Source: Escherichia phage vB_EcoM-UFV09
Direction: 5' to 3' (one strand)
DNA: 64,000 nt
Sequence record: MZ291552.2
Positions 2,459-36,796 of this stretch are shown piece by piece (the stretch's first letter is position 1; each line of letters begins with the position of its first letter). Made by a program: the position numbers and the translations under genes. The notes under the pieces are model-generated. The model worked only from the letters and a program-made list of their open reading frames with translations, did no database searches and was not told the origin of the DNA.

Positions 2459-4278
2459 TACTGGCTCATCCATTCTTTACGAAGGTCAGCATTATCTCCC
2501 ATGAGCATTTCAAAAAGCTCTTTCCAATTCTCAGGAAGTTTAACAACATCATATACTGGGTTTTGAATCATCTCACGATATTCAGATTTTTCCAAAGAGC
2601 CAAGTCCTTTAATATAACGGATGCTATGTTTAGGTAGAGCATCTTTGGCACTCTCATATTCAGCGACTGTATAAAACCATTCTTGTTTTTTACCGACCTG
2701 AGCGATGATTACAGGAGTTTTGACAAAGCGAATTCGTCCTTGCTCAAACAATTCTGGCCAATTACTAAAAAATCCGAGCAGAGAAGGATAAATGCTTCCT
2801 AAACCATCATGGTCAGCATCGGTCATAATAGCAATATTATGATAATTCAAGTTTTCAGCTTTTTCACCAAGAACTAATCCAGTGATTGCGCAAATATCAA
2901 ACAGTTCTTTGTTTTTAAGCATATCAGCATATGACATACCCCAGCTATTAAGAACTTTACCACGCAATGGATAACCACCGTGAAGTTCTTTATCACGAAC
3001 ATCAATAAGATATCCGATAGCAGAATCACCCTCAGTCAAGAAAAGAGTAGTGTCAGCATCTTTACCACAAAGATTCGCTTTGATATGTTTATGAACCTTA
3101 GCTTTAGAAGCCTTTTTAGCTGCTTTAGTTTCTGCTGCTTTTTCTGCCGCCAATTTACGAGCAAGGGCAGCTTCAATGATTGGCATTAAAATTGCTTCAT
3201 TATTTAGAATAGCGCGTGAAATCTTTTTAGCATCAAGTTGAATATGACTACGAATTTCGCCAAATGGAGAAGTCAAACGCTCTTTAGTTTGAGAATCAAA
3301 TCGCATGTTTTTCATATCACGGACAAACATAACGATAGTCAAACATTCTTTGACACGTGCTTTAGTCACATCAATTTTGAACTTACGTTTGATTTGTGGA
3401 ATAAGGTCTTCACAAATATCATCCATAACACAGTCAATGTGATGGCCACCATTCTTAGTGTGAATGTTATTCACATAAGTTAATTGACGAAATCCATCCG
3501 GTGAACGACCAACAGCAATAGAACAATTTTCTTGTTCTTGAACAATAGCATGTTCATCATACTGTCGTGCATATTTCTTAAAATTGCCCTGAACCTTTTT
3601 ACCATTAAAGGTAAATTGAATATCAGGATAAACAACAGCAAGTGTCTGGAGACGATCTAGTGTAATGTCAAGATAAACTTGGGACAGCTCATTAGTTTCA
3701 AATGACATAAAATCTGGAATGAAAGTAACACGAGTTCCTTTCCATTTTCCAGGAATAGTTTCCCAGGATTTATTTTCCATGCCATTTGAACAACGAACTA
3801 CAATATTATTTTGACCATCGCCAGTTTCACCGACAAACATCACAGAAAAAATGTTAGTTAAACTAGAACCAACACCATTCATACCACCGGTGACGCGTTC
3901 TTTATCATCACCAAAGTTACCACCCGCTTTTGGAATAGTCCATGCAGCAACAGGACCAGGAATTTCTTCACCGGTAGGTGTTTTAACCATCGCTTGCGGA
4001 ATACCGCGACCGTTATCTTCAACTGTCACCTGATTATTTTTAATGGTAACATTAATTTTATTCGCGAATTTAAACTTAGTACGAATACCTTCATCGACTG
4101 AGTTATCGATAATTTCATCAATAAGCTTAACAAGACCAGGTACATACTGAACACTTTCCCATTTACCAAACAGAAAGCGCTCATGCATTTCATTAGCAGA
4201 AGAGCCAATGTACATGCCACTACGCTTTTTGATATGTTCAATATCGCTCAGAATTTTAATTTCATTCTTAATCATCAC
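2458..4278 (-). CDS. 39: DNA topoisomerase II large subunit, uninterrupted form (GyrB-like ATPase plus Toprim)
   Basis: 606-aa ORF; N-terminus matches recalled T4 gp39 and continues without interruption into the gp60-equivalent C-terminal region. Confidence 0.9.
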   Translation of the reverse strand: MMIKNEIKILSDIEHIKKRSGMYIGSSANEMHERFLFGKWESVQYVPGLVKLIDEIIDNSVDEGIRTKFKFANKINVTIKNNQVTVEDNGRGIPQAMVKTPTGEEIPGPVAAWTIPKAGGNFGDDKERVTGGMNGVGSSLTNIFSVMFVGETGDGQNNIVVRCSNGMENKSWETIPGKWKGTRVTFIPDFMSFETNELSQVYLDITLDRLQTLAVVYPDIQFTFNGKKVQGNFKKYARQYDEHAIVQEQENCSIAVGRSPDGFRQLTYVNNIHTKNGGHHIDCVMDDICEDLIPQIKRKFKIDVTKARVKECLTIVMFVRDMKNMRFDSQTKERLTSPFGEIRSHIQLDAKKISRAILNNEAILMPIIEAALARKLAAEKAAETKAAKKASKAKVHKHIKANLCGKDADTTLFLTEGDSAIGYLIDVRDKELHGGYPLRGKVLNSWGMSYADMLKNKELFDICAITGLVLGEKAENLNYHNIAIMTDADHDGLGSIYPSLLGFFSNWPELFEQGRIRFVKTPVIIAQVGKKQEWFYTVAEYESAKDALPKHSIRYIKGLGSLEKSEYREMIQNPVYDVVKLPENWKELFEMLMGDNADLRKEWMSQ

Positions 4279-4302
4279 TTATCCTCGTTTGGTTTCGGGA
4301 AT

Positions 4303-4326
4303 ATTATACTCCGGCAATCATAAAGC
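4303..4326 (-). promoter_or_regulatory. possible MotA-dependent middle promoter upstream of gene 39
   Basis: Minus strand reads aGCTTTAtgattgccggagTATAAT: a MotA-box-like GCTTTA 12 nt upstream of a TATAAT -10. Confidence 0.35.
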
Positions 4327-4344
4327 TAAAGGCCCGAAGGCCTT

Positions 4345-4614
4345 TTATTTAAAACGAATAGTTGAATCCTTAAAGAACAGCCCAGAACATACTGTTCCTT
4401 CTACTTTCTGCCCGGTAGGTCCAATAGCACGAAATCCAGTATGCTGGAAATCATTTTCAGAGCAACCGAACCAATTGTATCCAGTGATTTCAATATTCGT
4501 AAAACCACTTGATGATAAAATTTTAGTTGCATTATCAGCATCAGTACATCCTACTAAAGATACTGCTAATACTAATGCTGCGATAGAACGATTAACATAT
4601 TTCATAATTTTCAC
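4345..4614 (-). CDS. small lipoprotein-like protein (39.1 position)
   Basis: 89 aa; N-terminal signal peptide ending in a lipobox-like LVGC. Confidence 0.5.
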   Translation of the reverse strand: MKIMKYVNRSIAALVLAVSLVGCTDADNATKILSSSGFTNIEITGYNWFGCSENDFQHTGFRAIGPTGQKVEGTVCSGLFFKDSTIRFK

Positions 4615-4985
4615 TTAAATTTAATGGCTTGAAGGAGACTAATAATTCTCAAACGGCTTCTTTCATCTTTAACTGTAAAAGAAAGAGGGTCGCCAGATTT
4701 CATGGTAATAGTGCATTCAAAATCAAAATCTTCAGTGACTTCTTCGAAGAAGTCAAATTCTTCATCATAAATTAGAACACTACTTTGCAGACTGTGAAGA
4801 GTTTTTCCAGCATTTCTGCTAACTGCTGTACTAATCATTGTAACATTATGACCTTTCATATCTTCAACGATAAATTCACTAGTCAATATTACAGCATTAA
4901 TAGAACTATTCCTATTACTAACAGAAAGTAGAAATTTCTGTTCTTCACCTTCACGAATACGATATTTCTTACCAATTTTAAACAT
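4611..4985 (-). CDS. hypothetical protein
   Basis: 124-aa ORF; start overlaps the upstream stop in the compact minus-strand array. Confidence 0.45.
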   Translation of the reverse strand: MFKIGKKYRIREGEEQKFLLSVSNRNSSINAVILTSEFIVEDMKGHNVTMISTAVSRNAGKTLHSLQSSVLIYDEEFDFFEEVTEDFDFECTITMKSGDPLSFTVKDERSRLRIISLLQAIKFK

Positions 4986-6187: not shown

Positions 6188-6679
6188 TTATGCATAGCGA
6201 GCTTTGCTATAGTGTTTAATCCAACTTTCAGGAATGACTTTGTATGTTCCTAAATATACCGCGTTGTACAGCTTAACACCGTCTTCTACCCACTGATCAG
6301 TAATGTATGCACACATAGCGCGAGTACGGTTAACAACACCTTCCTCACCTTCAGTAAATTCGAATTCATAAGGAGCAACGAACTTGATAGCTTGACCGAG
6401 TTTCCACTTAAAGTCTACACCTACATGTGAAGTATCAATCGTTTCAATTCCTTTAGCAGGAACAGCTTTCAAAAACGCAGACTCAAGAAATTTCGCACGA
6501 ACATAGCCAAACTGAGGTTTAGACTTTCCATCTTTAGGAATGATACGCACTTTTACTTCAGAATCTTCATCTTTAACACCATGTTTAAGCTGAATGCTTA
6601 CAATTTCGACCAATTTTCCTGCTGCTTTAGAGCGGGATTTATCAGATACACGAGCTAATTCACCAATATTAATAATCAT
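6188..6679 (-). CDS. hypothetical protein, MotB-like by size and position
   Basis: 163 aa; paralogous C-terminus with the next ORF (ITDQWVEDGVKLYNAVYLGTYKVIPESW versus VTDQWIEDGVELLNVVHAGEYSVVPRSA). Confidence 0.4.
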   Translation of the reverse strand: MIINIGELARVSDKSRSKAAGKLVEIVSIQLKHGVKDEDSEVKVRIIPKDGKSKPQFGYVRAKFLESAFLKAVPAKGIETIDTSHVGVDFKWKLGQAIKFVAPYEFEFTEGEEGVVNRTRAMCAYITDQWVEDGVKLYNAVYLGTYKVIPESWIKHYSKARYA

Positions 6680-15119: not shown

Positions 15120-15356
15120 TTAACCACCTATTTCTGTGGGTGTAAACATTGCAGCATTCTTAGTTTTCCAGTCAGCTGCATCAGAAACTACAGTAGAATA
15201 TGCCGCCTTTTCAGAAGGAAAGGTCTGATAATGAGAATCTGCAATACGATGCTCGTTAGAATAAATTTCAAACGGAACAGAAACTTCCATACCTTTAACT
15301 TCTTTGCCTTCACCTGTTGGATGAGTAAAGGTCTTGATGTTAACGAAACCACCCAT
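15120..15356 (-). CDS. soc: small outer capsid protein
   Basis: 78 aa; VNIKTF...HYQTFPSEKAAYSTV matches recalled T4 Soc; late promoter upstream. Confidence 0.85.
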   Translation of the reverse strand: MGGFVNIKTFTHPTGEGKEVKGMEVSVPFEIYSNEHRIADSHYQTFPSEKAAYSTVVSDAADWKTKNAAMFTPTEIGG

Positions 15357-15386
15357 AATAAACTCCTTTATTGTTTAATTACAGGT

Positions 15387-15394
15387 GTATTTAT
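15387..15394 (-). promoter_or_regulatory. late promoter TATAAATA for soc
   Basis: Exact TATAAATA on the minus strand about 30 nt upstream of the soc start. Confidence 0.6.
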
Positions 15395-15537
15395 AACTTA
15401 CAATTTAGCGGCTTTCCAGAGTTGTTCAATAATCTCTTGGTCTATTTCTTTAGTTATTTCATTACGTAATAAAGCAGTAAGGGCTTTCGCCCTTTTCTTA
15501 TTCAACTTTTTGAGTTGGCGTTTATTTAAACGGGACA

Positions 15538-16056
15538 TTAATAACCTCGGTCTTGACGTGCGAAATTTTCAGCATTTTTCAGATAATAAAGTTTAAAGAT
15601 TTCTTCTGCTGTAAGACCAAGACCCTGGAACATATTCAGAACGAAATGAAGAATATCAATCATTTCAAATTTAATTTCTAACTGGTCTTGTGGAGACAAA
15701 TCAGTAATCAGAGTTTCACGACGTTCACCATGCTGCGACTTCCAAGGTTTCCATACAGCAGATGCGTCTTTTTCACCATTACTCATACCACCAAGAGAAG
15801 TCAGAAGTTCACGGAATTCATCGTCAATATAATCTTTCTGATTACGCAACCAATCAACAACTTCACCGGCAGTAGCTAAGTCATCAGGATGACGATTATA
15901 TTCAGGTTTATCTTTAGCTAAACGAACCTGCAAAGATTTCTGCATATCAAGCATTACCTGCAGCGGGTCTTTTTCATCGCCGAGAATATCCCAATATTCA
16001 TTTTGAGCTTTATCAGCGCCTTCAATCAGTTGTGAACATTCGTTAAAGTAAGCCAT
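15538..16056 (-). CDS. 56: dCTP/dCDP pyrophosphatase (MazG-like dCTPase)
   Basis: Start trimmed to MAYFNECSQ... (~172 aa, T4 gp56-sized); the longer track ORF reads through upstream sequence. Confidence 0.8.
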   Translation of the reverse strand: MAYFNECSQLIEGADKAQNEYWDILGDEKDPLQVMLDMQKSLQVRLAKDKPEYNRHPDDLATAGEVVDWLRNQKDYIDDEFRELLTSLGGMSNGEKDASAVWKPWKSQHGERRETLITDLSPQDQLEIKFEMIDILHFVLNMFQGLGLTAEEIFKLYYLKNAENFARQDRGY

Positions 16057-30859: not shown

Positions 30860-30914
30860 GTAATTTCCTTCAATTCAAATGAGATTTAATTTTATAACTA
30901 ATTTAATAAAGCAA

Positions 30915-31304
30915 TTAACGATTAAAATCAGCCGCAATTGTTTCCACAACAATTTGAGCAGCAACAATTAGACGTTCATCTGCATTACCACAATAATCAT
31001 CTTCAAGGCGTTCACCGCATGAAGTCATAATAAATTTAGCACCGGCGTTTAGGGATTCTGTAGTATGTTTGCGCATTAGTTCAATCCATTTATTACTTAC
31101 TTCACGATCGATAGCTTCATAATACGCATGACGAGCAGGTGCAGATTTAATTTTGTTCTGAATAACTTCCATTGCGTTATCAGAAAGAGACAAAACCCAT
31201 GCTCGACGAATTTTATTTTGGTTTTGTGGATTTGATTCAGAACGCACGTGTTTTGGCTGAATATCTTTTACGTCAACAGTATAATTCACAGTAATTTTAG
31301 TCAT
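30915..31304 (-). CDS. rpbA: RNA polymerase-binding protein RpbA
   Basis: 129 aa, downstream of gene 45 as in T4. Confidence 0.6.
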
Positions 31305-31313
31305 AATACACCT

Positions 31314-31505
31314 TTAGTCATAATAATCAGTAACAGTCCAAGCTTCATTTCTATTGGACATTATTTTTGTATATTCTGCTTTAAATGCATTCCTAAGCAT
31401 AGATTCAGTAACTATATGCTCTTCATTAGAAAAATTATTTCTCAGAATATATCGTTTTATTTCAGGAATAGTTAATAGATGCTGTCCAGTTGAATATTCT
31501 GCCAC
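31314..31505 (-). CDS. small hypothetical protein (45.2 position)
   Basis: 63-aa ORF. Confidence 0.45.
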   Translation of the reverse strand: MAEYSTGQHLLTIPEIKRYILRNNFSNEEHIVTESMLRNAFKAEYTKIMSNRNEAWTVTDYYD

Positions 31506-31515
31506 AGTTCCTCCG

Positions 31516-31523
31516 TATAAATA
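31516..31523 (+). promoter_or_regulatory. late promoter TATAAATA on the plus strand
   Basis: Exact TATAAATA about 34 nt upstream of the plus-strand HNH gene start. Confidence 0.55.
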
Positions 31524-31556
31524 TGTTTATCACTCGCTGTATCAAAAGGATATGTT

Positions 31557-32273
31557 ATGAATTATAAACTAATTTATGAAAAGTTAATCTCTAATGCTAA
31601 ATCTCGAAAACTTGATTGCTATACTGAATCTCATCACATTATACCGCGCTGTTTAAATGGAAGTGATGATGCTTCAAACTTAGTAGATTTAACACCAGAA
31701 GAGCACTATGTAGCTCATCAACTTTTAGTAAAAATTTATCCTTCTGAACCAAAATTAGTCTATGCTGCTAACATGATGACAGTTTCTACGAAATACGCTA
31801 AACGCAACAATAAAACTTTCGGTTGGATTCGTCGTAAACTCTGGGAAATAGAAAAGAACAAAGAATTCTCCCAGGAGACACGAAAGAAAATGTCTGATGC
31901 AGTAGCTAATAAAGCAAGATTAACTTGTCCTCATTGCGGTAAGTCTGGATTAAGCGGAAATATGAATCGTTGGCATTTTGATAACTGCCCAAATCACCCT
32001 AATCCTAAAATTAGACCACCAATGTCTAAAGAACACAGAAATAATATCTCAAACGGGCTTAAAGCAATCGTTCTTGAAGAAACATCCTGCGAATTCTGCG
32101 GAATGATAGGCAAGAAATGCGTTATCGCAGCGCATAGAAATTTCTGCAAGAAAAATCCAAATGGACGCAAGAAAACTGAAAAGACTGGTACTTGCGTCCA
32201 TTGTGGTAAAGTTACCACTTTCGGAAATTTATCAAGATGGCATAATGATAACTGTAAATATAAACTTAGCTAA
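31557..32273 (+). CDS. free-standing HNH homing endonuclease with three zinc-finger-like repeats
   Basis: 238 aa; N-terminal HNH motif ESHHIIPRCLNGSDDASNLVDLTPEEHYVAHQ; three CxxCG...RWH.DNC-type repeats; opposite strand to its neighbours. Confidence 0.75.
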   Translation: MNYKLIYEKLISNAKSRKLDCYTESHHIIPRCLNGSDDASNLVDLTPEEHYVAHQLLVKIYPSEPKLVYAANMMTVSTKYAKRNNKTFGWIRRKLWEIEKNKEFSQETRKKMSDAVANKARLTCPHCGKSGLSGNMNRWHFDNCPNHPNPKIRPPMSKEHRNNISNGLKAIVLEETSCEFCGMIGKKCVIAAHRNFCKKNPNGRKKTEKTGTCVHCGKVTTFGNLSRWHNDNCKYKLS

Positions 32274-33954
32274 TCTTAGCTAAACTAAATCTACCAACTT
32301 TTTCCATCTGAATATGCTGACCATATTCTTGTGGGTCATGGTCTTTATGTGAAATTATGAAGAAGTTGGTATCCTTCAAACCATCTAAAATTTTAGCTAC
32401 ATTTTTAATACCTTCAGCATCAAATGCACCGTCATACACTTCATCAAGAAATAAACAACTTATTTTAACACCTGAAACTTTTTCAGCAATATCACGCCAA
32501 GTAAATAAAAGAGCAATATCAATTCGCGCTTTTTCACCTTGACTGAATGAAGCATAACTAAAATCTTCACGACCACGGGATTTAATTGTCTCATTAAATT
32601 CTTCATCTAATGTAAACACATAATCCGCTTCCATTATTTTAAGATAATGGTTAATCTGCTTATTAAATAATGGAATGTACTTTTTAATAATAGCACCTTT
32701 AATACCAGAATCTTTGAGCATATCAGTCAAAATTCCTCGGTGGTATTTTTCCATTACTAAATTAGTTTTTGTCTTAACAATTTTATCAAGTTCTTCTTGA
32801 AGCAGTGCTATTTCATCAGCATGGTCAATAAACTCAGAAGATGCTTTTTCTATAGCCGCTTTAACCTTTTTAGCTTTATCTACTGCTGCGATCAGAGATT
32901 GCTTTTTATTGCGAATATCATTTGCCAACGACTGCTGGGTTTTAATATTATCTCGGTATTCATCAACAAGAACTTTTAAATTATCACGATGTGTTGAAAG
33001 ATGTTCAAACGAATGCGTGCATTCAGAAACTTTATCTTTAATTTTAGAAACAACTTTATCACCGGAACTTAATTGTGACAAACAGGTTGGACATAATCCA
33101 CCTTCGTGATACATATTAATGACTTTATTATACGAGTCAATTTTTGATTTAATTAAAACTGCTTCTTGACCGATTTTATTAAATGCATCAGTCGGGTCTT
33201 CATCTAAAACAATATTAACTAATCTTTCATTAGCTTCTTCTATTTCCGATTTTAGCGTTCTAGCTTCTTTTGCCAAATCATCATACATATTTTGAAGACG
33301 AGTAAGGTTGTCACCCGTTAATTTTTTCTGGCGTTCAACGTTATCATTATATATTTTAATTTGTTGGATAATACTATCTTTTTTAACATCAAGCACTTGG
33401 TTTTGTGAATTTAATTCACGTATTAGTGCTTTATTAAGCTTATCCATTTCAGCTAATGTTCCTACCTCGAGCAGGTCTTCCACAAGCTTTCTTCGCGCAG
33501 GGGTCGACAAACCCATGAAAGGGGTATACCCTGCTGTACCAAGGACAACAATCTGCTTGAAACTGGCATATGACATTCCGATAAGCTGTTCAAATTCTGC
33601 TTGGAAATCTTTACTGCTGGCAGATTCATTAAGACGTGTACCGTTAACGGTGATTTCGAAAACGTTTGGTTTTTGTCCTCTTTTGATATAATACTTTTTC
33701 TCATCATATTCCATCCACAGTTCAACTAAAAGTTCTTTCTTATTTGTGCTGTTTATTAATTGACCTTTCTTTACATCACGAAATGGCTTGCCAAAAAGCC
33801 CAAATGTGATGGCTTCTAACATAGTAGACTTACCACCGCCATTTCGTCCAGTAATAAGAGTTTTTTGAACCTTATCTAATTGAATGTCAATAGGATTTCC
33901 ACCTACTGACATTATATTTTGATACCTAACTCGGTTTAGTTTAAAATTCTTCAC
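32266..33954 (-). CDS. 46: recombination nuclease subunit (Rad50/SbcC-like ATPase)
   Basis: 562 aa; Walker A GRNGGGKST, coiled-coil middle, CPTC zinc hook, Walker B LFLDE. Confidence 0.9.
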   Translation of the reverse strand: MKNFKLNRVRYQNIMSVGGNPIDIQLDKVQKTLITGRNGGGKSTMLEAITFGLFGKPFRDVKKGQLINSTNKKELLVELWMEYDEKKYYIKRGQKPNVFEITVNGTRLNESASSKDFQAEFEQLIGMSYASFKQIVVLGTAGYTPFMGLSTPARRKLVEDLLEVGTLAEMDKLNKALIRELNSQNQVLDVKKDSIIQQIKIYNDNVERQKKLTGDNLTRLQNMYDDLAKEARTLKSEIEEANERLVNIVLDEDPTDAFNKIGQEAVLIKSKIDSYNKVINMYHEGGLCPTCLSQLSSGDKVVSKIKDKVSECTHSFEHLSTHRDNLKVLVDEYRDNIKTQQSLANDIRNKKQSLIAAVDKAKKVKAAIEKASSEFIDHADEIALLQEELDKIVKTKTNLVMEKYHRGILTDMLKDSGIKGAIIKKYIPLFNKQINHYLKIMEADYVFTLDEEFNETIKSRGREDFSYASFSQGEKARIDIALLFTWRDIAEKVSGVKISCLFLDEVYDGAFDAEGIKNVAKILDGLKDTNFFIISHKDHDPQEYGQHIQMEKVGRFSLAKIS

Positions 33955-35593: not shown

Positions 35594-36796
35594 TTATTTT
35601 GTAATAATGTCAAACTGCTCTTTAAAGCAGAAGCTTGAATCTTGGTGCTGATACAAAAATTCATAAGCTTTTTCGCGTTCACGGTCATAAAGAGTTCGGT
35701 CAGATGACAGTTCTTTAATACGTTCAAATGTTGATTCCATGTCATTTTCATCAAACCAAATGATACCGCTATCATGCGAGGTCAAAGGAGTATTATCAAC
35801 ACGGAATTTTAAATTTTCGCCTGTAGATTTCCAAAATACCGGAATTGTTCCACATGCACCAAGCTCGAGATGAGTATATTCTAAAGAACGTTGTAGATAT
35901 TTTTTGTCCAACTTACTCAGCTGATAACCAAATCCGGATTTACTCATGCGTTCAAGCATTTCGCTATTTACATAACGGTCAAGAATTTGCGTTGGCAAAT
36001 TAGGAGCAATTTTAATTTGGTCTACTTGATGAAGACGATAATACTCGTATGGAATTCCTTTTTCTTTAATAGGAATGAACGCTGGAGAACGTTCCAGACC
36101 TTCCATAATAGTACTTAGTCCTGCAGGTTTAAGATGTTTTTCATGAAAATCAAACATCTGATAAAAACCTTTCCACGTAGTAGTACGACCAATCCAACGA
36201 TTGATATTCATGTTAATTTCAGAAACATCTTTCCAGTAGGTTGATCGAACCTTTGCAATATCCATCGGAGGCTGAAAGTTATATACTGTCGGTGCTTCTT
36301 CAATATCATCAAACAGAGAAACTGTTTCAGGATACCATTCTTTCATCAGAACTTTATTAAAATCGCCATTATCAGAATGGCTAAAAATAACATCAGCTCG
36401 ACGAACAGTTTCTTCTAATCCCAAATTTCGACGCAAAGAAAGAGAAGAATGGTCATGTTGATAAACTACAACACGAACAGAAGGTTTAATGTTATCAATA
36501 ATTTTTTTATAGTTATTAATAGTGTCTTCTTCAACTGAAGTAGCAGGAACTGAATTGATAATTAGAATATCACAATCATTTACCAGCTTAAGTGTTTTAT
36601 CGTATTCTTTTGCCAATAAAACCGGAATTGAAAATGATTTATAATCATGCGCGCAATTACGAGTAAATGATTTATCTTTAGCATAAACCAAAGTTACTTC
36701 ATGACCATTTTTAATAAACCAATCACGTTGCTCAAGAGAAAATTTAGTTACACCACAACCTTCAAGACCTCGAGCCATAAAAATACATACTTTCAT
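35594..36796 (-). CDS. agt: DNA alpha-glucosyltransferase
   Basis: 400 aa; N-terminus M.ICIFMARGLEGCGVTKFS matches recalled T4 alpha-gt. Confidence 0.9.
   Translation of the reverse strand: MKVCIFMARGLEGCGVTKFSLEQRDWFIKNGHEVTLVYAKDKSFTRNCAHDYKSFSIPVLLAKEYDKTLKLVNDCDILIINSVPATSVEEDTINNYKKIIDNIKPSVRVVVYQHDHSSLSLRRNLGLEETVRRADVIFSHSDNGDFNKVLMKEWYPETVSLFDDIEEAPTVYNFQPPMDIAKVRSTYWKDVSEINMNINRWIGRTTTWKGFYQMFDFHEKHLKPAGLSTIMEGLERSPAFIPIKEKGIPYEYYRLHQVDQIKIAPNLPTQILDRYVNSEMLERMSKSGFGYQLSKLDKKYLQRSLEYTHLELGACGTIPVFWKSTGENLKFRVDNTPLTSHDSGIIWFDENDMESTFERIKELSSDRTLYDREREKAYEFLYQHQDSSFCFKEQFDIITK

Follow-up and report, generated by a model that had tools for sequence, protein, structure and literature searches.

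Several phage HNH homing endonucleases resemble the gene described here in part. MobE of T4 is encoded by a free-standing HNH gene wedged beside a conserved DNA-metabolism gene. It nicks the neighbouring gene nrdB and drives co-conversion, and T4 mobE is promoterless, being read through from nrdA (PMC2790892). I-TevIII, encoded in the nrdB intron of phage RB3, has an N-terminal HNH domain in which mutagenesis has shown H26, H27, N39 and H48 to be catalytic, and C-terminal zinc-binding fingers, on which both DNA binding and the dimerisation behind its double-strand break depend (PMC1865063). In the Bacillus phage enzymes I-HmuI and I-HmuII an HNH domain is linked to a DNA-binding domain, and both promote homing although they are nickases (PMC2988022, PMC2790892). 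MobB, also the product of a free-standing HNH gene, is encoded in the same part of the genome as the gene analysed here.

The 64-kb stretch of DNA analysed here (the window) comes from an RB32-like, T4-type Tequatrovirus and is 100% identical to vB_EcoM-UFV05 and ~98% identical to RB32. Its ORF listing contains a plus-strand ORF of 238 aa with an ATG start (31557-32273), which is flanked on one side by gene 45.2 (31314-31505, minus strand), rpbA, gene 45 and gene 44, and on the other by gene 46 (32266-33954, minus strand), with which it is convergent and overlaps by 8 nt at the 3' ends. The placement between replication and recombination genes given in the first-pass annotation was thus borne out. 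Its count of only two convincing plus-strand genes was roughly right: of eight plus-strand ORFs in the 64 kb that start with ATG and encode 90 aa or more, three are not buried in minus-strand ORFs (4208-4618, 15231-15596 and 31557-32273), and neither of the first two matches a PHROG. The 238-aa gene and the domains of its product are as follows.

31557-32273, plus strand: homing endonuclease coding sequence, equal to RB32ORF054w (PHROG, GenBank/RefSeq, dN/dS, AlphaFold)
31626-31718, plus strand: HNH catalytic core, aa 24-54, with H26, H27, N41, H50 and H54; ESHHIIPRCLNGSDDASNLVDLTPEEHYVAH
31869-31913, plus strand: NUMOD3-like helix 1, predicted helix 106-117; SQETRKKMSDAVANK
31926-31988, plus strand: zinc finger 1, CX2CX12HX3C, aa 124-144; CPHCGKSGLSGNMNRWHFDNC
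32025-32066, plus strand: NUMOD3-like helix 2, predicted helix 158-170, sequence read directly; SKEHRNNISNGLKA
32088-32147, plus strand: zinc finger 2, CX2CX11HX3C, aa 178-197; CEFCGMIGKKCVIAAHRNFC
32193-32255, plus strand: zinc finger 3, CX2CX12HX3C, aa 213-233; CVHCGKVTTFGNLSRWHNDNC

The 238-aa protein matches PHROG 655, "homing endonuclease" (E = 8.6e-69), the GenBank and RefSeq entries for the identical gene RB32ORF054w read "homing endonuclease, similar to mobB", and the RB32 and RB51 copies have already been tallied as 'mob-like HNH' genes. The HNH gene at 45.2/46 is therefore a real but previously annotated selfish gene. Searches of the literature returned no experiment on the protein or on RB32ORF054w, and nothing relevant on a characterised endonuclease at 45.2/46.

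The HNH motif and the three zinc-finger-like repeats noticed at first reading are all present in the ORF, every quoted string being found. In an alignment of 40 family sequences H26, H27, N41, H50 and H54 are invariant, and the family profile matched the HNH motif of McrA in a PDB search (E = 1.5e-4); the Pfam HNH model (PF01844) scored 16.9 bits on the protein, below its gathering cut-off of 21.4. The structural model of this region shows a beta-beta-alpha core, with strands at 24-27 and 42-45 followed by a helix at 47-60. Pfam NUMOD3 (PF07460) scored 12.6 bits at aa 103-115, under the 20.4 gathering cut-off; since PF07460 is present in many more distant family members, both NUMOD3-like helices are probably diverged NUMOD3 units. 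The AlphaFold model of the whole protein has a mean pLDDT of 90.7, and each finger is confidently predicted as a beta-hairpin plus helix, with block-mean pLDDT of 92-95 for finger 1. Finger 1 shares 44-50% identity with the fingers of T4 nrdB.1 and I-TevIII, the ligands of finger 2 are retained in 11 of 11 same-site homologues, and those of finger 3 (C213, C216, H229, C233) are invariant in the 40-sequence alignment. With Foldseek, the top hits were DNA-binding finger arrays such as CTCF, none of them significant. An N-terminal HNH domain is thus followed in the protein by NUMOD3-like helices and by three CCHC zinc fingers of the I-TevIII type.

Comparison by blastp gave matches to T4 MobB (43.7% over 126 aa, E = 3e-29), MobE (42.5% over 120 aa, E = 1e-28) and MobC (37.3% over 142 aa, E = 5e-22), together with a 30-aa match at 50% to the MobA fragment. 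The similarity to MobB, MobE and MobC, at 37-44% identity, lies in the N-terminal 110-134 aa. By its HNH domain, free-standing intergenic slot, family-specific C-terminus and empty sites, the gene would be placed in the Mob family; of the first-pass label 'mob/seg-type', the Mob half (HNH) stands and the Seg half, which denotes GIY-YIG enzymes, does not. The C-terminal half of MobB has no CCHC fingers and its alignment ends at aa 110-113, so the database wording 'similar to mobB' is true for the nuclease domain only, and we rejected the description of the protein as MobB-like as a whole. Its C-terminal domain differs from those of MobB and MobC and instead matches the zinc fingers of I-TevIII and of the MobE tail, and the corrected assignment is a MobB/MobE-type HNH domain joined to I-TevIII-type fingers. 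Furthermore, mobB is flanked by a-gt and a-gt.2 and shares the strand of its neighbours, unlike the homing endonuclease gene (HEG) at 45.2/46, and is itself absent from the 64-kb window.

The likeness to MobE extends beyond the nuclease domain. MobE/nrdB.1 likewise has a NUMOD3-like segment and then a CX2CX12HX3C finger; the finger of nrdB.1, the split-off MobE tail, is 58% identical to finger 3 (nrdB.1 alignment E = 9e-8), and full-length MobE orthologues from the nrdA/nrdB site align end to end at 30-37% identity. However, the 45.2/46 HEG occupies a slot other than nrdA/nrdB, is opposite in orientation to its neighbours, has its own late promoter where T4 mobE has none, and encodes three fingers, as against one in the T4 MobE tail. 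I-TevIII shares the same order of modules, its four catalytic residues corresponding to H26, H27, N41 and H50 here, and fingers 2 and 3 align with the two fingers of the I-TevIII remnant in T4 (36% identity, E = 8e-8; a second alignment to this remnant gives 9e-6). The spacer of finger 2, 11 residues, is one below the published I-TevIII range CX2CX12-13HX3C (PMC1865063). I-TevIII is intron-encoded, has two fingers and another target gene, whereas the 45.2/46 HEG is free-standing and has three. We rejected an I-TevIII orthologue, the gene lying at 45.2/46 and not inside the nrdB group I intron; the modules are nevertheless shared. I-HmuI and I-HmuII are also intron-encoded and have the two-part HNH and DNA-binding design in common with this HEG; neither was recovered as a match in sequence and fold searches.

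We next consider the distribution of the gene. The HEG is carried by 59 of ~510 Tequatrovirus GenBank records (~12%, about one in eight), and in the HEG-less records, T4, T2 and T6 among them, a 55-nt spacer separates 45.2 from 46 as a precise empty site. The span of the locus is 1372 nt in ~450 HEG-less records, as compared to 2086 nt in the 59 carriers, and in 448 records the sequence of the empty junction is conserved to 95% or more. In all 59 carriers the ORF is intact, with protein identity of at least 95%. An IMG/VR scan with RpbA added six loci, all HEG-less, a set too small for population statistics and used here as additional empty-site alleles. The HEG is thus polymorphic for presence and absence among otherwise near-identical phages. 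The proposal that the gene is a mobile insertion differing between T-even phages therefore holds, and the comparison of the 45.2-46 junction that had been suggested as its check yielded empty-site alleles.

The insertion extends beyond the ORF. The window is 100% identical to T4 up to 31498 and then has no homology to it; past the insert, identity is ~80% over 32274-32546 (~270 bp of gene 46), and from 32547 it is 50 of 50 in each segment compared. The parts of this region are listed below.

31499-32546, strand not assigned: whole HEG-linked cassette, comprising the insert and the co-inherited diverged gene 46 3' end
31314-31505, minus strand: gene 45.2, with a GTG start from the cassette and its own GGAGG
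32266-32332, minus strand: HEG-specific gene 46 end, last ~22 codons, with candidate immunity polymorphisms
32333-32546, minus strand: co-converted diverged gene 46 tract (B2), codons ~470-540, with ABC signature, Walker B and H-loop

The cassette substitutes for ~330 bp of the T4-type allele, and the outer flanks on both sides of it are ~99% identical to T4; over flanks A and C the window is 99.3% and 98.8% identical to HEG-less T4, versus 97.2% and 98.0% to HEG-carrying RB32. Tract B2 is bimodal, at 98.6-99% identity among HEG-carrying phages and 79-82% to HEG-less phages. The records at least 90% identical to the tract query numbered 59, all with the HEG, and 471 others lay at 80-90%. The HEG-less phage vB-Eco-KMB22 also has tract B2 and looks like a natural recombinant; outside the HEG carriers and KMB22, no other GenBank phage has the tract. 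The Dhakavirus and Mosigvirus homologues were rejected as tract donors, their gene 46 ends being only 73-74% identical. At least three haplotypes of the gene 46 3' region exist even within HEG-less phages, so part of the 'co-conversion tract' could be ordinary T-even mosaicism.

At the very end of gene 46, four SNPs (32292, 32302, 32304 and 32313) split all HEG-carrying from all HEG-less loci in a comparison that covered three of the former and nine of the latter, and the gp46 C-terminal tail ends in ...VGRFSLAKIS with the cassette versus ...VGRFTVMV in T4. At the other end, the start region of 45.2 reads GGAGGAAAAACATGGAATAT in T4 and GGAGGAACTGTGGCAGAATAT in the window, and the 192-nt form of 45.2 is annotated in RB32 and RB51. 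The HEG is thus part of an insertion/replacement cassette at 45.2/46 that moves with a diverged gene 46 3' end, and, judged from these alignments, the mobile unit appears to be larger than the ORF and to take in ~270 bp of gene 46. This cassette accounts for a recurrent 714-bp indel and a local gene 46 patch of ~80% identity in Tequatrovirus genomes that are nearly identical elsewhere, an explanation useful for annotation and for phage therapy genomics.

In Dhakavirus (MX01, IME281), Mosigvirus (348Ecol098PP), Slopekvirus (phT4A) and an unclassified Pseudotevenvirus record, this slot holds homologues that are 36-64% identical and likewise converge on gene 46. It is also occupied in Enterobacter phage EC-F1 and in the metagenomic P0008, P0020, P0022 and P0031. 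Mosigvirus is itself polymorphic, 348Ecol098PP having the HEG and PHB12 an empty site. The dN/dS ratio against homologues is 0.07-0.22, and 0.07 between the window and the RB51 copy at dS = 0.15; by this measure the HEG is under purifying selection.

We consider it probable, at roughly 0.78, that the gene is a free-standing Mob-family (HNH) homing endonuclease that homes into 45.2/46 of HEG-less phages. In the mechanism we propose, the zinc-finger array would, in a mixed infection, bind the conserved gene 46 3' end of the HEG-less phage, along the block that codes for the H-loop and the ~60 bp beside the stop codon, and the HNH domain would next nick or cut close by. Repair by recombination off the HEG-carrying genome would then copy in the endonuclease gene together with flanking gene 46 sequence, and the carrier genome would be shielded because the end of its own gene 46 carries substitutions and its spacer is interrupted. 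Taken together, the cassette map, the gene 46 linkage, KMB22, the multi-genus slot and the domain assignment point to a candidate target of ~60 bp, which we infer to lie within the last ~60 bp of gene 46.

The gene might alternatively be a domesticated competition nuclease, retained chiefly for the harm it does to co-infecting relatives (partial exclusion, marker exclusion) or satellites by cutting their gene 46 region, where the Rad50-like recombination nuclease is encoded, with homing as a by-product. The strong purifying selection and the retention of the slot in at least four genera outlast what is expected from classical gain, decay and loss; Petrov et al. (PMC2993671) name HEG nucleases as contributors when T4 excludes T2; and over 60 aa the N-terminal domain shares ~50% identity with ICP1 'homing endonucleases'. 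However, a strong weapon would be expected to be commoner than a gene found in only ~12% of Tequatrovirus records, and homing itself yields cassettes of this kind, in which a flank is co-converted and the empty sites are precise; we regard this reading as unlikely. The competition-nuclease and homing readings are mutually compatible.

Less probable still is that the gene is an inactive relic, which once homed and is now spread by homologous recombination and descent, its pattern reflecting lineage sorting and T-even mosaicism. Several T4 HEGs are indeed defective (mobA, I-TevIII, and mobE split from nrdB.1), and the gene 46 3' end is mosaic in HEG-less phages too. A relic should, however, drift towards a dN/dS of 1 and gain stops, whereas here the ratio is 0.07 (window versus RB51), the ORF is intact in every carrier record, and the catalytic residues and zinc ligands are all kept. 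Finally, a zinc-finger DNA- or RNA-binding regulator, acting for instance on gene 46/47 or 45.2 transcripts, with a leftover HNH-like fold and no role in mobility, would fit the non-significant Foldseek resemblance of the three tandem beta-beta-alpha fingers to CTCF-like arrays and the precedent of I-TevI, which doubles as a repressor (PMC2988022), but is very improbable given that the HNH catalytic residues are invariant, that the gene is dispensable, being missing from ~88% of close relatives, and that it is distributed like a mobile element.

Returning to the homing endonuclease, we tentatively suggest that it represents a distinct, long-lived HEG lineage devoted to the highly conserved gene 46 3' end and persisting at this slot in several T4-like genera, in which the three CCHC beta-beta-alpha fingers read the H-loop block and self-immunity is provided by the substitutions at 32292, 32302, 32304 and 32313; this remains a doubtful extension of the homing reading. 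The product of the target gene 46 is the Rad50-like subunit of the nuclease by which breaks are processed in homing. If the suggestion is true, each invasion would rewrite the gp46 tail, change the start of 45.2 to GTG and remove an apparent MotA-type middle promoter of the T4 spacer, so that the element would measurably affect host-gene expression. A literature search for middle promoters mapped ahead of 45.2 returned nothing relevant. What is added here to the existing annotation is the precise cassette map, the strict linkage to the diverged gene 46 end, the KMB22 recombinant, the slot shared across genera and the corrected domain assignment.

The expression signals of the HEG itself are as follows.

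31516-31523, plus strand: T4 late-promoter box TATAAATA, exact match, 34 nt upstream of the ATG
31546-31550, plus strand: Shine-Dalgarno sequence AAGGA, 6 nt before the ATG, read directly
32266-32283, strand not assigned: 7-bp hairpin TTAGCTA-ATCT-TAGCTAA, spanning both convergent stop codons; -6.5 kcal/mol, z = -2.3

The exact late promoter and the GGA ribosome-binding site of the first-pass annotation are both in place, and its span of 31516-32273 accurately runs from promoter through stop codon. The box occurs three times in the 64 kb, as compared to 10.7 +/- 3.0 copies expected from shuffles; it is thus depleted, and chance is unlikely to have placed a copy 34 nt before the ATG. Moreover, the box is kept at 27-53 nt ahead of the homologous genes in RB32, RB51, MX01, 348Ecol098PP, P0008 and P0020 (five lineages), while the exact sequence is missing upstream of the Slopekvirus-type homologues. 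The HEG is thus presumably transcribed late from its own promoter, antisense to the surrounding early and middle genes. A sigma-70 and terminator scan of 31250-32650, whose model does not include late and MotA promoters, found fewer promoter-like sites than in shuffles and no terminator, and no significant RNA hairpin sequestering the AAGGA, of the kind present in Aeh1 mobE and T4 intron ORFs, was detected (z = 0.12). At the convergent stop codons, equivalent hairpins of other sequence lie in the same place in MX01, 348Ecol098PP and P0008 (AAGCCTC..GAGGCTT) and in P0031 (GGGGA..TCCCC); the structure may serve as a terminator or an RNA end.

The first-pass annotation had proposed a mobile HNH homing endonuclease insertion, likely to differ between T-even phages, and we compared the junction of genes 45.2 and 46 across relatives of UFV09. 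The window belongs to Tequatrovirus, being 100% identical to Escherichia phages vB_EcoM-UFV05/06/10/11 and ~98% identical to RB32 (Megablast). The ORF of the predicted homing endonuclease gene (HEG) was present in 59 of ~510 matching Tequatrovirus-level records (HEG+ phages), and the remainder had an empty site (HEG-). T4 lacks HEG and has 55 nt between 45.2 and gene 46; HEG-less records aligned in two pieces over a span of 1371-1373 nt vs 2086 nt, a clean 714-bp difference, and a 151-nt probe for the T4 empty junction matched 448 records, T6 among these, at an identity of at least 95%. Thus, the insert is polymorphic, and the possibility that relatives have no empty-site alleles falls away given the T4 site and its many conserved counterparts.

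HEG is already known as an annotation and is uncharacterised. Its RB32 equivalent, RB32ORF054w, is labelled 'homing endonuclease, similar to mobB', as is the RB51 copy, and two 'mob-like HNH' genes have been listed for RB32 and one for RB51 (Petrov et al. 2010, PMC2993671); our literature search found no paper testing HEG at 45.2/46. A second HEG+ allele class comprised 8 records (RB51, RB68, ESH35, REP2/3, NIC06P2) that were ~96% identical over 551 nt. This class (1590-1680 of L016, the RB51 locus) has a 1-nt indel, a different HEG C-terminus (..CKHKH) and a different gp46 tail (..VGRFSVATIN), and dS to the window HEG was 0.15, far above flank divergence. A tblastn search with the HEG protein found no other Mob-type paralogue in window positions 1-64000; mobA, mobB and mobC are present in the first 50 kb of T4. 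This arm of UFV09 carries a different, smaller set of HNH elements than T4.

The gene and its surroundings were as follows.

Features around HEG
31557..32273, + strand: HEG ORF, 238 aa, ATG start
31314-31505, - strand: gene 45.2, upstream of HEG; rpbA, gene 45 and gene 44 lie on the same side and strand
32266-33954, - strand: gene 46, downstream of and convergent with HEG, overlapping its 3' end by 8 nt
31516-31523, + strand: late-promoter box TATAAATA, exact match, 34 nt upstream of the HEG ATG
6 nt before the HEG ATG, + strand: ribosome-binding site AAGGA, read from sequence

The annotation had thus correctly placed a gene with an exact late promoter and a GGA ribosome-binding site between conserved genes, and every string it quoted was present where it had said. 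Its view of HEG as a rare plus-strand gene also held: of the + strand ORFs in the 64-kb window with an ATG start and a length of 90 aa or more, only three, HEG included, were not buried in - strand ORFs, and the other two had no PHROG match. TATAAATA is avoided in the UFV09 genome, with 3 copies in 64 kb against 10.7 +/- 3.0 expected from shuffles, and the copy upstream of HEG is therefore meaningful. Among 10 homologues compared, six (RB32, RB51, MX01, 348Ecol098PP, P0008, P0020) had TATAAATA 27-53 nt upstream of the ATG, three (phT4A, EC-F1, P0022) had only CTAAATA or TTAAATA, and P0031 had none of these. The other two unburied + strand ORFs are 4208-4618 (136 aa) and 15231-15596 (121 aa), each for the most part not covered by - strand ORFs; a - strand TATAAATA (15388-15395) falls within the latter.

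The mobile unit exceeds the HEG ORF. On the left, the window and T4 were identical as far as 31498 (second codon of 45.2); on the right, 32274-32546 (~270 nt of gene 46) was ~80% identical to T4, with 50/50 matches per 50-nt step from 32547. Outside this cassette (31499..32546) the window was no closer to RB32, which bears HEG, than to T4, which lacks it.

Identity of the window to HEG- and HEG+ phages
30900-31498, left flank, gene 45 to 45.2: 99.3% to T4 (HEG-); 97.2% to RB32 (HEG+)
32333-32546, gene 46 3' tract B2: 79-82% to HEG- phages; 98.6-99% to HEG+ phages
32547-33300, remaining gene 46: 98.8% to T4 (HEG-); 98.0% to RB32 (HEG+)

A GenBank query with the tract was bimodal, with exactly 59 records at least 90% identical and 471 at 80-90%. 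As a sequence pattern, such a bimodal tract in T4-like flanks is the expected signature of homing, in which the donor flank would be co-converted into different backgrounds, a reading that carries two caveats: HEG-less phages have at least two haplotypes in the same part of gene 46, and HEG-less vB-Eco-KMB22 (OR539217; locus L015, 1431-1915) has a T4-type empty site and, for the final ~55 nt, a T4-type gene 46, followed by the HEG-type tract from ~32333 onward. KMB22 looks like a natural recombinant, useful for mapping target or immunity determinants, and it narrows the region strictly linked to HEG to 31499 through ~32332. Another patch in which identity to T4 is low and the boundaries are sharp (35897-36146; 60-80% per 50 nt, both flanks ~90-100%) lies ~500 nt downstream of gene 47, probably in a-gt.

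Full-length homologues with 36-64% identity shared the position and orientation of HEG, with 45.2 (or rpbA) on one side and, on the other, gene 46, with which they converge and whose stop they abut or overlap. The carriers were Dhakavirus MX01 and IME281, Mosigvirus 348Ecol098PP, Slopekvirus phT4A, Enterobacter phage EC-F1 and four metagenomic contigs. Mosigvirus PHB12 has an empty 45.2/46 site, and the polymorphism thus recurs outside Tequatrovirus. Within Tequatrovirus dN/dS was 0.07-0.09, and for comparisons across genera with a measurable dS it was 0.09-0.22, which argues against HEG being a decaying relic; three fingers with every ligand were kept in all 11 copies compared. The next-nearest full-length relatives (30-37%) adjoin nrdA, the MobE position. 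Furthermore, N-terminal-only matches (59-69% over the first ~95 aa, unrelated remainder) lie beside gene 2 (DNA end protector), being tblastn matches H63-H67 and H72, e.g. in phages Pinarejo and QL01. These illustrate domain shuffling in the family, and the HNH module looks to have been shuffled recently among homing endonucleases that differ in their DNA-binding tails.

The HEG protein matched PHROG 655 'homing endonuclease' (E = 8.6e-69), and Pfam HNH and NUMOD3 below cut-off. Residues 1-110/134 were 37-44% identical to T4 MobB, MobE and MobC; the C-terminal part had no match to MobB and matched the T4 I-TevIII remnant (E = 8e-8) and nrdB.1 (E = 9e-8), the split-off tail of T4 MobE. The three zinc-finger-like repeats, also claimed at first pass, are CX2CX12HX3C, CX2CX11HX3C and CX2CX12HX3C, the motif defined for RB3 I-TevIII, in which each finger holds one zinc and both DNA binding and the dimerisation giving a double-strand break depend on the fingers (PMC1865063). 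In an alignment of 40 sequences sampled from 2299 database relatives, H26, H27, N41, H50, H54 and the last finger (C213, C216, H229, C233) were invariant; the I-TevIII counterparts H26, H27, N39 and H48 are catalytic (PMC1865063). An AlphaFold model (mean pLDDT 90.7, but pTM 0.54) predicted a strand-strand-helix HNH core, a beta-hairpin and helix per finger, and two helices coinciding with NUMOD3-like segments. Against the PDB, the family profile matched the HNH motif of McrA (E = 1.5e-4), and whole-model fold searches gave nothing significant.

Empty sites, the co-inherited tract and Mob homology together support a mobile homing endonuclease. HEG had been annotated before and is an ordinary representative of a well-known class; it is of interest as an uncharacterised Mob lineage whose cassette is well defined and whose predicted target can be tested. 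By analogy with I-TevIII and with MobE, which nicks nrdB strand-specifically and drives co-conversion (PMC2790892), the HEG protein would, late in mixed infection, bind a conserved stretch at the HEG-less gene 46 end and cut nearby, and repair would copy the cassette in. We give roughly even odds (about 0.5) that the target lies in the final ~60 bp of gene 46, because the strictly linked region ends near 32332, four substitutions within 22 bp (32292, 32302, 32304, 32313) that separate 3/3 HEG+ from 9/9 HEG- loci examined cluster there, and this end, encoding the ABC-ATPase H-loop, is highly conserved (81-91% nucleotide identity even in T4-like phages of Acinetobacter, Klebsiella and Enterobacter). 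Homing endonucleases favour such conserved sequence.

The cassette also alters both neighbours. The gp46 C-terminus reads ...VGRFSLAKIS* in the window vs ...VGRFTVMV* in T4, with 17 replacements in residues 472-531, and 45.2 starts GTG GCA GAA... with its own GGAGG, vs ATG GAA... in T4. On the - strand of the T4 46/45.2 spacer (6248-6302 of the T4 locus L001 = NC_000866 33247-33301), TGCTTTA, 11-12 nt, TATAAT and GGAGG precede the 45.2 ATG, which we take from the sequence to have the appearance of a MotA-dependent middle promoter. Upstream of 45.2 in the window (cf. 31506-31560) we found no comparable MotA-type element and no recognisable promoter; insertion may therefore lower 45.2 expression. 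Finally, a 7-bp hairpin, TTAGCTA-ATCT-TAGCTAA (32266-32283; z = -2.3), spans both convergent stop codons. Its position is conserved and its sequence is not, the counterparts being AAGCCTC-nnTAA-GAGGCTT in homologue loci L011, L012 and L020 and GGGGA-TTAAC-TCCCC in L022, and it could serve to terminate transcription in both directions or to stabilise RNA ends.
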